Shown: in pieces, positions 46,315 to 52,992 of the stretch
Position numbering within the stretch: position 1 is the stretch's first letter
How the letters are laid out: each line of letters opens with the position of its first letter
The notes under the pieces: generated by a model
The model's input: the letters and a program-made list of their open reading frames with translations, nothing else
Database searches by the model: none
Told to the model about the DNA's origin: nothing
Source of the DNA: a phage
Reading direction: 5' to 3' (one strand)
NCBI GenBank assembly: GCA_014685065.1
Contig: GCA_014685065.1_4092.1
DNA length: 64,000 bases
Program-made: the position numbers and the translations under genes

Positions 46315-46342
46315 GGGACAAAATGCTTTTTGGTGCTATAAT
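46315..46342 (+). promoter_or_regulatory. sigma70-type early promoter (GGGACA, 16 nt, TGcTATAAT)
   Basis: Same architecture as 801-828; followed by perfect palindrome GGTACAA-gga-TTGTACC (46352-46368) and the gp55-like gene. Confidence 0.5.
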
Positions 46343-50923: not shown

Positions 50924-50983
50924 AGCTGTTTGTCCTGTTTTGTTAAATAAAGTATATTAAAAAGTTTTGTGAGGTACAATAGA

Positions 50984-51931
50984 ATGGCTAAAATGACACA
51001 ACAACAATTTATAGATAAATCAATTAATCTACATGGTAGTATTTACACCTACAATAACACCGTGTATGTTAATGCACATCAACCAGTGTCTATTACATGT
51101 AAAATTCATGGTGACTTTACGGTAGTTCCTAATAAACATATTTCCGCAAAGCAAGGTTGTCCGGTTTGTTCTGATATTGCAAAGAAAGAACGTAAATCTA
51201 AAAAGTCACTGGAGTCATTCTTTACTGAAGCAAAAGAAGTACACGGTGATAAGTATGATTACTCTAAAGTGTTTTTCAACATTCGTTCAGAGAAAATTAC
51301 TATCATATGCAAAGAAGAAGGTCATGGTGAATTTAATCAGGTAGTTAGTAATCACCTAGCTGGACAGGGTTGCCCTGAATGCTCCAAAGCACTTATTGGT
51401 TTAAAGAAAAGAACACCAGAAGATGTATTCTTTGAAGATTGTAAGTACATTCATATGGATGCATACGACTACTCCAATACAAAATATAATGGTATGTATG
51501 AAACAATTACACCAGTATGCAAACGTCATGGAGAATTCACAGTACTGGCAACTAAACATTATCATAGAAAGCAAGGTTGTCCGGTTTGTTCTGACATGGA
51601 ACTAAAGTCAAGACCAGTTATTGAAATTCAGAATTTTTTAAAAGAGTATGATATAATATTTGAAATGGAAAAGAAGTTTGATGGTTGTAAAAATATAAAC
51701 CATTTACCATTTGATTTTTATATTCCTTCACTGAATCTTCTAATAGAGTATGATGGTATTCAACACTTCAAACCAATAGAGTACTTTGGTGGTAAACAAG
51801 CTTTAGCTGAACAGCAAAGAAATGATGAAATAAAAAATCAATTCTGTTTTAATAACAACATTACTCTTCTTAGAATAAAGTATTTCGAAGATCATATTAA
51901 AATCATCAAAGACTATATATCAAAACTTTAA
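50984..51931 (+). CDS. free-standing nuclease: three Cys/His repeat units plus C-terminal DUF559/Vsr-like PD-(D/E)XK domain (putative homing endonuclease)
   Basis: Three ~45-aa repeats (YxYS...C..HGxF......H....QGCPxCS) then LPFDFYIPSLNLLIEYDGIQHF...LLRIKYFE. ORF-track start is GTG 50969; ATG 50984 with GAGGT RBS preferred. Confidence 0.55.
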   Translation: MAKMTQQQFIDKSINLHGSIYTYNNTVYVNAHQPVSITCKIHGDFTVVPNKHISAKQGCPVCSDIAKKERKSKKSLESFFTEAKEVHGDKYDYSKVFFNIRSEKITIICKEEGHGEFNQVVSNHLAGQGCPECSKALIGLKKRTPEDVFFEDCKYIHMDAYDYSNTKYNGMYETITPVCKRHGEFTVLATKHYHRKQGCPVCSDMELKSRPVIEIQNFLKEYDIIFEMEKKFDGCKNINHLPFDFYIPSLNLLIEYDGIQHFKPIEYFGGKQALAEQQRNDEIKNQFCFNNNITLLRIKYFEDHIKIIKDYISKL

Positions 51932-51954
51932 AATATGATATAGTTTTTTTAGAA

Positions 51955-51986
51955 CCAAGTAATAAAAATGTTACTTGGGTTTTTTA
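51955..51986 (+). terminator. intrinsic terminator
   Basis: 8-bp stem CCAAGTAA/TTACTTGG with 8-nt loop followed by GTTTTTT. Confidence 0.6.
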
Positions 51987-52038
51987 TATGTGTAAAAGTT
52001 GGAACTAAGTACTTAATGAATATTTTTATAAAAATAGT

Positions 52039-52066
52039 GAGACAACTTTAAAGTTTGTGCTATAAT
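52039..52066 (+). promoter_or_regulatory. sigma70-type early promoter (GAGACA, 16 nt, TGcTATAAT) with no protein gene downstream
   Basis: Same architecture as the promoters at 801, 23342 and 46315. Confidence 0.5.
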
Positions 52067-52072
52067 GTTTGT

Positions 52073-52526
52073 TGTAGTAATGACAATCCTGTTGAATGCA
52101 GAAATGCATATAAATTAGAACCTGATCCTATCGAAAATGTAGATGGCAGATGAGCAGTTCAACAGTGCGATGAGCAAAAGAAACCCGTTAGATGTGGGCA
52201 TAGTTTGAACCCCTCACGGCAATGCGGCTCAATAAAGAACTCCGATAAGCATACAGAGAGTTCCTCGATAGACATATAAGGATCGCACCTTACCAGATTT
52301 GCTAAGGGAGTTTATTAAGTGATTTTAATAAACAGCCTGAAGTTTGATTGTATAGACTTTCAGGTGAGTGTCAGGATGATTAAGACTGACGACCGTTGCA
52401 CATGACTGCGATAGAGAGAAACAGAGCAACCCGCTTTCGTTCTTAATATATTTTTAAGAAATTCGCAATACAATAAATGCTGAAACCATCAGCGTCAAGA
52501 AATAGAGACTTCATTGTCTCTTTTTT
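52073..52526 (+). ncRNA. candidate structured noncoding RNA (~450 nt), identity unknown
   Basis: Bounded by the promoter above and an intrinsic terminator (stem 52504-52521 plus T-run); no ORF of 60 aa or more; GC-rich hairpins. Confidence 0.3.
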
Positions 52527-52740
52527 ATTGTCTTCATTCCCCTGCGGGGGGATGAAAATGTCCTCAACAAATCCCGTCAAGTATTAAATCTTTTAAAGTT
52601 CTTTATAATTAATTTAATTAAATGAATATGAGTTACGTAGTAACGAATATTCTTCAGCTAACGAATGAAATGAGTTAGATGAATCCAATAATATTAAAAT
52701 TAATCCTTTCATAATTCAATTCAAATAATTCTGTAGTTTA

Positions 52741-52771
52741 AAACCAAAAAAAACCAGCAACAATGTGCTGG
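52741..52771 (-). terminator. intrinsic terminator (minus strand)
   Basis: CCAGCA-6 nt-TGCTGG hairpin; minus strand reads hairpin then TTTTTTTTGG. Confidence 0.6.
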
Positions 52772-52782
52772 CTATATGAAAA

Positions 52783-52992
52783 TTAGTGCTTCTCGTTTTG
52801 TTTTTTAATTTTTTTATTAAAAGACTTAACTAATAAGTCTCTATCTATTAATGGCATATTAAGGAGTGTTCCATAGTCAATGTTATCCATATATACAGAA
52901 CATTCCATTAGTGCATTTTTGATTTCTGACTTATTCAGTTCTATCTCCTTCAGTACTTCTTGTATTTCTTCAGGAGATGACTGGAGAAGCAT
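52783..52992 (-). CDS. hypothetical small protein
   Basis: 69-aa ORF, start overlaps the stop of the upstream gene by 1 nt. Confidence 0.4.
   Translation of the reverse strand: MLLQSSPEEIQEVLKEIELNKSEIKNALMECSVYMDNIDYGTLLNMPLIDRDLLVKSFNKKIKKQNEKH

Follow-up and report, generated by a model that had tools for sequence, protein, structure and literature searches.

The 64,000-nucleotide stretch of phage DNA analysed here (contig GCA_014685065.1_4092.1 of NCBI GenBank assembly GCA_014685065.1, henceforth referred to as the window) contains copy A of a hitherto undescribed family of large pseudoknotted RNAs, which culturable jumbo phages carry in several copies. The source is a Rak2-like jumbo phage of E. 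coli, namely an Asteriusvirus similar to 121Q and PBECO4. Our preferred reading, to which we assign a probability of roughly 0.6, is that ~52073-52690 is the gene for a large noncoding RNA of complex fold (~0.45-0.65 kb), which is expressed pre-late from a promoter at 52039-52066 and functions in trans, either as a scaffold or as a ribozyme. An original prediction, made from the letters of the window, had proposed a structured noncoding RNA with its own promoter at this locus, and covariation now strongly supports this proposal. The descriptive parts of the prediction were also borne out: the interval 51932-52782 has no open reading frame (ORF) of 60 amino acids (aa) or more, the longest (45 aa) being on the minus strand; the promoter elements are present with their 16-nt spacer, and promoters of this class recur at three further sites in the window (-10 elements at 820, 23361 and 46334); the ATGCA-GAAA-TGCAT hairpin is found at 52096-52109; and the interior, described as more GC-balanced than its flanks, has a GC content of 0.41-0.43 (52100-52400) compared with 0.23-0.29. 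The minimum free energy of 52073-52530, proposed as a check, gave z-scores of -2.78 (plus strand) and -1.79 (minus strand). The locus is not single, each genome having 4-5 such paralogs. The corresponding 0.84-kb interval of 121Q carries no annotation.

A BLAST search with the core of the RNA matched 72 phage records, 61 of which cover at least 80% of the core. The hosts belong to nine genera (Escherichia, Salmonella, Klebsiella, Cronobacter, Pectobacterium, Serratia, Yersinia, Erwinia and Xanthomonas) and the phages were Rak2-like wherever this was checked. Identity of the core between genera was 67-77%, and BLAST found 4-5 matching places per genome, with five in most of the other Rak2-like genera; the RNA shows about the same degree of conservation as the flanking essential genes, which are 65-70% identical at the nucleotide level to those of GAP32 and Munch. 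In 121Q, a family hidden Markov model (nhmmer) detected exactly four copies, D at ~90.3 kb, C at ~192.8 kb, B at ~247.5 kb and A at ~326.6 kb, in a genome of which we fetched ~86% (the remaining parts, 277-320.6 and 333.4-337 kb, are covered by the near-identical window). All four lie on the plus strand, which is the gene-sense strand, each in an ORF-poor gap, and are separated by about 102, 55, 79 and 112 kb. The same model matched copy A of the window at 52076-52687 (E = 6.5e-142), the conserved element being ~0.6 kb long. A further region of 121Q, ~2 kb without an annotated gene at 135195-137160 (L004 35195-37160), had no nhmmer match to the family. Uncultivated relatives were added by motif scans of IMG/VR and of metagenomes, and three divergent members on phage-like contigs (L047, L051 and L066) retain the core only. 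A search of a plasmid collection found no RNA copy, and a motif scan of 100,044 species-representative genomes yielded chance matches in GC-rich coding DNA and no copy; two loci from the latter scan (L083 and L084) were set aside as chance because they had no nhmmer match and a GC content of 62-73%, and five from the viral and metagenome scans (L030, L041, L058, L069 and L080) were likewise considered chance matches. A literature search found no description of the family, although the supplement of a survey of 10,006 candidate viral RNAs (PMC10690425) lay outside its coverage.

The evidence for a folded RNA comes from compensatory changes between the copies. RNAalifold, applied to 27 copies, proposed 66 pairs, of which 41 show compensatory changes. 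A model of 85 pairs with two pseudoknots was built by a helix-by-helix covariation scan and counted on 27 copies: 87.7% of its cells were paired compared with 73.6% after shuffling, and pairing dropped to 42-45% when the partners were slid by 1-3 positions. The covariation score was 0.400, compared with 0.160 for shuffled and at most 0.106 for slid partners, and for both measures 0/500 shuffles reached the observed value. Changes on both sides were found in 52 of the 85 pairs, which is what the original prediction had asked of aligned relatives. The result held also on 36 copies, in which the fully paired helices contain 47 G-U pairs and 0 A-C pairs; since G-U is kept and A-C never occurs, the pairing takes place in RNA and on the plus strand. 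We also looked for a conserved small ORF, which the original prediction had named among the findings that would speak against an RNA. Insertions and deletions ignore the reading frame (lengths modulo 3 of 150/480/176), and the longest ORFs of the copies (31-108 aa) differ between copies and are not conserved in position; therefore the element is under no coding constraint.

The promoter and the elements of the fold are, in order along the window:

52039-52066, plus strand: promoter found by consensus scan (GAGACA at 52039-52044, N16, extended -10 element TGcTATAAT at 52058-52066)
52089-52096 / 52158-52165, plus strand: Pa, long-range helix enclosing Pb and P2 (5' domain, 52089-52165)
52096-52109, plus strand: Pb, variable hairpin inside Pa
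52121-52149, plus strand: P2, hairpin with loop GAAAAUGUA, 91% paired, 7/8 pairs with compensatory changes
52149-52154, plus strand: invariant GAUGAG directly after P2
52171-52175 / 52227-52231, plus strand: P3, enclosing P3a, 100% paired, 4/5 pairs covary
52185-52188 / 52216-52219, plus strand: P3a, inside P3 (central domain, 52171-52310)
52237-52242 / 52258-52263, plus strand: P4, hairpin, 96% paired, 6/6 pairs covary with up to 4 pair types per position
52277-52281 / 52288-52292, plus strand: P5, putative and weakly supported hairpin, 46-48% paired in MAFFT columns
52302-52310, plus strand: invariant CUAAGGGAG, closing the central domain
52336-52341 / 52359-52364, plus strand: hairpin S, 62% paired in MAFFT columns (pseudoknotted core, 52336-52474)
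52347-52353 / 52468-52474, plus strand: PK1, between the loop strand of S and a partner 110 nt downstream, 99.5% paired, 5/7 pairs covary
52370-52390, plus strand: H6, putative and weakly supported hairpin, 54% paired, scored one base out of register
52395-52399 / 52426-52430, plus strand: PK2, 100% paired, 3 covarying pairs
52407-52411 / 52463-52467, plus strand: P7, 100% paired, 4 covarying pairs
52414-52418 / 52434-52438, plus strand: P8, 100% paired, 3 covarying pairs, an invariant G-U
52441-52445 / 52455-52459, plus strand: P9, in the pseudoknotted core
52493-52497, plus strand: second CGUCA, immediately 5' of hairpin T
52504-52526, plus strand: hairpin T, optional and terminator-like (AGAGAC-UUCAUU-GUCUCU, then U6; scan match)
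52533-52556, plus strand: P11, 10-bp hairpin with UGCG loop, 90% paired, G-U to G-C changes only
52568-52581, plus strand: conserved CAAAUCCCGUCAAG after P11 (3' core, 52533-52581)
52624-52652, plus strand: hairpin 1 of the 3' module, GAAUAU-GA-GUUAC-GUA-GUAAC-GA-AUAUUC (computed fold)
52658-52678, plus strand: hairpin 2 of the 3' module, CUAAC-GAAUGAAAUGA-GUUAG (3' module, 52624-52690)
52752-52773, either strand: bidirectional hairpin where the convergent minus-strand operon ends (terminator scan, minus strand)

The most conserved part of the RNA is the pseudoknot formed by PK2 and P8, which is of the H type (CGACCGUUGC..GAGAGAAACAGAGCAACCCGCUUUCG), lies inside P7 and is clamped by P7 and PK1, the core spanning CGACCGUUGC..UGCGAUAGAGAGAAACAGAGCAACCCGCUUUCG. 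L051 and L066, two divergent members from metagenomes, likewise have compensatory changes in PK1, PK2 and P7. The sequence of PK1 is specific to the paralog (A, AUUGUAU/AUACAAU; B, AUCGAAU/AUUCGAU; C, UCAUAU/AUAUGA; D, AUUGCAU/AUGCAAU); for types A, B and C closely related sequences are present in the orthologs of other genera that we read, and type D was seen in 121Q only. In the 5' domain, the strands of Pa are complementary in copies with differing sequences (CUGUUGAA/UUCAACAG, CUGAAAGG/CCUUUCAG and ACAACGG/CCGUUGU, read by eye), and in the central domain an AUAAAG junction separates P3/P3a from P4, with GAUAGACAUAUAAGG between P4 and P5. The blocks GGGGGGAUG and CAAAU/CCNCGUCA hardly vary across the alignment of 27 copies and many unpaired nucleotides are invariant, and the peripheral hairpins come and go among copies. 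After P9 and before hairpin T there is a small hairpin ending in CGUCA. RNAalifold proposes that GAUGAG pairs with CGUCA, for which either of the two CGUCA copies flanking hairpin T could serve, a pairing without the variation on which covariation depends. The 3' module is homologous to the better-conserved module of other genera, which reads GAAUUGAG-[hairpin with loop AACGAAGUGA]-ACGAAAAUUCUUUGA-[5-bp covarying hairpin]-GGCAAAUC. The hairpin at 52752-52773, which on the plus strand has a free energy of -9.0 kcal/mol and a poor U-tract, keeps its position in the A-type copies of other genera and is probably where any read-through transcript would end at the latest. An optional mini-hairpin, similar in both cases (..UUUUAGUACA..GAAGUUGUAUCUAAAAUU..), was observed at two sites in different paralogs, one being the tip of P9 and the other lying between CUAAGGGAG and hairpin S (A3 columns ~346-400 and ~534-565; for example L006 47760-47800 and 47890-47930), and behaves as a small movable peripheral module.

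A family promoter (GRGACA/GAAACG-N16-TGnTATAAT) precedes all 27 full copies extracted from phages and metagenomes, its -35-like element varying between GGGACA, GGAACA and GAAACG, each followed by N16 and TGnTATAAT. Judged from the promoter, transcription of copy A would start near 52073. The three further promoters of the window are of the class GTGRGACAA-N15/16-TGnTATAAT, which was described earlier for phages CBB and GAP32 and which in CBB is concentrated before DNA-synthesis genes (PMC5259590). That at 46334 precedes the gene for a gp55-like late sigma factor by 58 nt, and because this gene has the same promoter class, the RNA is probably made before the late genes, a timing that derives from the promoter class only. 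In C-type paralogs, a terminator-like hairpin with a U-run was seen directly downstream of the promoter, before the conserved RNA begins (L005 42771-42810, L020, L024, L025, L034 and L037).

The original prediction had placed a terminator at 52504-52521, and a hairpin followed by a T-run is indeed present there; it is not the end of the element, however, since homology within the family reaches 52687. The stem of this hairpin (hairpin T) covaries (94% paired, 5/6 pairs). Because it is weak (-7.9 kcal/mol compared with about -11 kcal/mol for nearby gene terminators), is missing from 8/27 copies, including the 121Q paralogs C and D, and is followed by ~170 nt of family-conserved sequence (P11, CAAAUCCCGUCAAG and the 3' module, with conservation to ~52690), hairpin T is not an obligatory 3' end, and it may create a short isoform. 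Between 51500 and 53300, 5 terminator-like sites were found where 0.4 were expected.

Two E. coli chromosomes contain a full copy of the RNA together with its own TGTGATATAAT promoter, which is of the RNA-family type, as listed here:

L081 5890-6700 = NZ_AP027515.1 ~3478800-3479600: island copy in E. coli LR-29-1
NZ_CM130020.1 245243-245781: island copy in the second chromosome

The island (~10.7 kb) lies between ffs and ybaA, has a resolvase and an integrase split by IS3, and contains a DUF4326-mSLOG/DUF488/DuOB gene set. Only the RNA core is phage-like, with 80.6% identity to Serratia phage BF, and the flanks are not; the P4 stem differs from that of BF at several positions and is still paired when read by eye. 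The RNA is missing from a related island that shares the integrase and the neighbour gene, and therefore behaves as autonomous movable cargo. A 303-aa protein encoded upstream of the island copy was considered as a partner and rejected, as it belongs to the core genes of the island and is present also in the RNA-less one; it has no significant similarity to the phage nuclease described below. The only match in a tblastn search of the island proteins against 121Q was to DUF4326, far from any RNA copy. Downstream of the island copy, ~700 bp are unannotated (L081 6550-7258) and contain ATCGATCGTT repeats, and at the equivalent position the RNA-less island (L087 2197-2893) has a different 0.7-kb noncoding stretch rich in GTAC-containing repeats.

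The RNA matches none of the known families, and the original prediction had not assigned it to one. We scanned the window copy and eleven other copy-bearing loci with Rfam 15 (4227 families, among them GOLLD, ROOL, OLE, HEARO, raiA, group I and II introns, RNase P, tmRNA, 6S and SRP), eight of the eleven at E<=2-5 and the other three, like the rest of the window, at gathering thresholds only. At gathering thresholds there were zero matches across the 64-kb window; at E<=10, 51900-52850 gave terminator look-alikes and a 5.5-bit match to transfer-messenger RNA (tmRNA) at 52468-52524 (E = 8.6), and no match to Intron_gpI. Nothing was found on the element in GAP32, Rak2, Kaldavass, Munch, L047, L061, L066 or the island copy, and the signal recognition particle RNA in L081, serving as positive control, was detected. 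ARAGORN found 0 tRNA or tmRNA genes in the window. A group I intron was rejected because the element is intergenic with its own promoter, so that there are no exons, and because the 5' strands of PK2 and P7 are only 7 nt apart, which leaves no P4-P6. An omega RNA or HEARO was rejected because no IscB/TnpB-like gene is consistently adjacent, the neighbours of the four 121Q copies differing; nuclease genes near copies are of small HNH or homing-endonuclease types and are present in some genomes only.

RNAs longer than ~400 nt with conserved pseudoknotted folds are rare, and in the past they have proved to be either ribozymes (RNase P, group I and II introns) or long-standing puzzles (OLE, GOLLD, ROOL, raiA). 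GOLLD, ROOL and OLE resemble the window RNA in size class (~0.5-0.8 kb), in having many covarying helices, pseudoknots and invariant unpaired bases, in being stand-alone genes without an adjacent partner protein and in that their function was unknown when they were discovered; GOLLD and ROOL share with it, in addition, the association with phages. However, the window RNA matches none of their Rfam models in sequence or structure, is found in virulent Enterobacterales jumbo phages rather than in Lactobacillales, rumen or lake (pro)phages, and differs from all three in having 4-5 diverged paralogs per genome. Oligomerisation of GOLLD, ROOL and OLE has been seen by cryo-electron microscopy (cryo-EM; bioRxiv 10.1101/2024.12.08.627333). 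In the Pseudomonas jumbo phage PA5oct, a distant relative of the Rak2-like group, RNA sequencing (RNA-seq) defined ncRNA001-004 (PMC7318152), four ORF-free transcribed loci of 0.24-0.62 kb. In the 3' part (L085 974-1121) of ncRNA004, which is 619 nt long, a C-rich/G-rich hairpin (UUUCCUUCCC-AAAC-GGGGAGGAAA) and the ACGAA-rich tail behind it resemble P11 and the 3' module, without statistical significance. Homology to these long noncoding RNAs is unsupported, with no nhmmer match for ncRNA001-003 and a 3-bit match for ncRNA004, and they do not have the core motifs GACCGU, ACCCGC and CGUCA. The phi29 pRNA is likewise phage-encoded and structured, and its covarying loops mediate multimerisation; as in PK1, a loop-strand pairing varies in sequence while complementarity is kept. 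Unlike the pRNA loops, PK1 can be drawn as intramolecular, its sequence being compatible with pairing within or between molecules; the window RNA is 3-4 times larger and unrelated in sequence, and Rak2-like phages, unlike phi29, use a T4-type terminase that needs no RNA.

Under our preferred reading, a fraction of the transcripts would end at the weak hairpin T and the rest would read through into the conserved 3' domains. The folded RNA itself would be active in trans, either catalytically, as a ribozyme, or by serving a conserved component of phage or host as scaffold or binding partner, and would act through neither an encoded peptide nor its DNA. The paralog-specific 7-bp PK1 may prevent mispairing between sister RNAs or may mediate self-assembly. 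More tentatively, and with a low probability, the family could be a new class of large functional RNA, a ribozyme or a self-assembling RNA of the ROOL/GOLLD type, with 4-5 orthogonal paralogs each having a private 7-bp PK1 'address'; its weight in the conflict between phage and host would then be such that the bacterial island captured and kept a copy, perhaps as a decoy. Several observations weigh against the preferred reading. In the MAFFT columns, pairing is poor for Pa (67%), S, P5 and H6, which we attribute to slippage of the alignment in variable regions; complementarity of Pa and S was read by eye in a handful of copies, and P5 and H6 are without such a check. An internal hairpin with a U-tract, and the one that follows the promoter in C-type copies, are odd for a stable RNA gene. 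Outside type A, several copies from other genera (B-type, C-type and further ones) have a gene that begins 15-25 nt beyond the 3' module, and there the RNA may serve as a leader. The four 121Q copies have no protein gene as a consistent neighbour, and neither a partner nor a substrate was found. Finally, a literature search found no RNA-seq study of Rak2-like enterobacterial phages, and expression, ends and stability of the RNA are therefore inferred only.

We also considered whether the transcript could serve its surroundings in cis or at the level of DNA. A primer RNA for replication is in our view rather unlikely; each copy would mark one of several origins of the 350-kb genome, and its transcript would fold, remain hybridised to the DNA downstream and prime the leading strand, as in ColE1 RNA II or the R-loops at T4 oriF and oriG. 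Like the window RNA, RNA II and the T4 oriF/oriG transcripts are promoter-driven and structured, ~0.5 kb long and have a conserved G-run, and T4 has several origins, as these phages have several dispersed copies, and a pre-late promoter class. The size of ~0.55 kb and an invariant G6 run (52547-52552) recall RNA II, and T4 origins are middle promoters. Among four random points, the smallest gap is as large as that between the copies ~5% of the time (our calculation), AT-rich DNA (25% GC) follows copy A, the sole copy for which such a flank was seen, and an island with a phage origin could be amplified upon infection. The concentration of the CBB promoter class before DNA-synthesis genes (PMC5259590) points in the same direction. 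Against this, two pseudoknots and dozens of invariant unpaired bases exceed what a primer needs, the tertiary architecture being far more elaborate and more conserved than in RNA II or the T4 transcripts. Non-A copies of several genera have a gene right after the 3' module and hence no AT-rich unwinding region, so that no such region is conserved; nor is there a conserved antisense regulator or antisense promoter, the sole promoter-like site on the minus strand (52374-52347) overlapping H6 and the paralog-specific PK1 strand. GC skew tracks gene orientation only and has no inflection at the loci, and the bacterial island captured and retained the RNA core only and not the downstream DNA. If true, this explanation would provide the first replication origins for the Rak2-like phage group. 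Slightly less likely again is a leader or attenuator, riboswitch- or put-like, in which the RNA would sense a ligand, a protein or the state of the polymerase and GAUGAG would switch between its CGUCA partners, so that transcription stops at hairpin T or reads on. A terminator-like hairpin does sit between two CGUCA copies, either of which can be paired with the invariant GAUGAG, a promoter lies immediately upstream of every copy, and other-genus copies have genes 15-25 nt after the 3' module. However, GAUGAG and CGUCA are invariant, which puts the switch beyond the reach of covariation, and no phage gene follows the island copy. For copy A we rejected a riboswitch or attenuator, as in the window, GAP32 and Munch this copy faces a convergent operon, has no downstream gene and retains every domain, and as hairpin T is absent from the C and D paralogs.

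That the element is a known RNA too divergent for its Rfam model (a group I/II intron remnant or an RNase P-like, tmRNA, HEARO/omega, GOLLD or ROOL RNA) appears improbable. A homing-endonuclease-like gene lies beside copy A and a Pfam-confirmed HNH gene precedes 121Q copy B by 0.9 kb, and by our own reading the order of the strands (PK2-5', P7-5', PK2-3', hairpin, P7-3') bears a loose resemblance to P3/P7/P8 of group I introns; on the other side stand the Rfam scans, negative on the element while the control was detected, the position outside genes, the mere 7 nt between PK2 and P7, the negative ARAGORN result and the lack of a consistently adjacent IscB/TnpB-like gene. We give hardly any credence to the view that there is no RNA gene at all and that the region is a decayed protein gene or a transcribed conserved DNA element, such as a protein-binding array or a packaging or recombination site. 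It is true that several GenBank records annotate proteins over the region, but the retention of Watson-Crick and G-U but not A-C pairs is specific to one RNA strand, the indels are not multiples of three and the ORFs unconserved, and a DNA site would need no long-range pseudoknot complementarity. In these records, 2-5 short 'hypothetical proteins' are drawn over the RNA copies (for example 121Q gene 516, L006 47799-47954); such ORFs are probably spurious, and the annotation of the RNA loci in many GenBank records is thereby corrected. The family lends itself to study, since the phages grow on laboratory E. coli (121Q, PBECO4 and phAPEC6) and several diverged copies already give rich covariation, and with a natural 'transplant' in the E. 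coli chromosome, genetics, probing and cryo-EM are immediately possible.

The gene next to the RNA in the window is

50969-51931, plus strand: zinc-finger nuclease gene, 320 aa (Pfam DUF723 and a treble-clef zinc finger above cut-offs, DUF2726 sub-threshold)

A homolog with 46% identity is present at the same site in Salmonella phage Munch, and the gene is absent from 121Q and GAP32, in which endoVII directly abuts the RNA locus. This distribution fits a free-standing homing endonuclease, which by its sequence the gene looks like, rather than a part of the RNA. In the fetched ~86% of 121Q, two genes are annotated 'HNH endonuclease', 513 (L006 46019-46630) and 170 (L003 41320-42108), and Pfam confirms HNH for gene 513 and not for gene 170. 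Gene 513 lies 0.9 kb upstream of copy B and gene 170 lies 0.4 kb downstream of copy D, a linkage of HNH genes to the RNA copies that is suggestive only.

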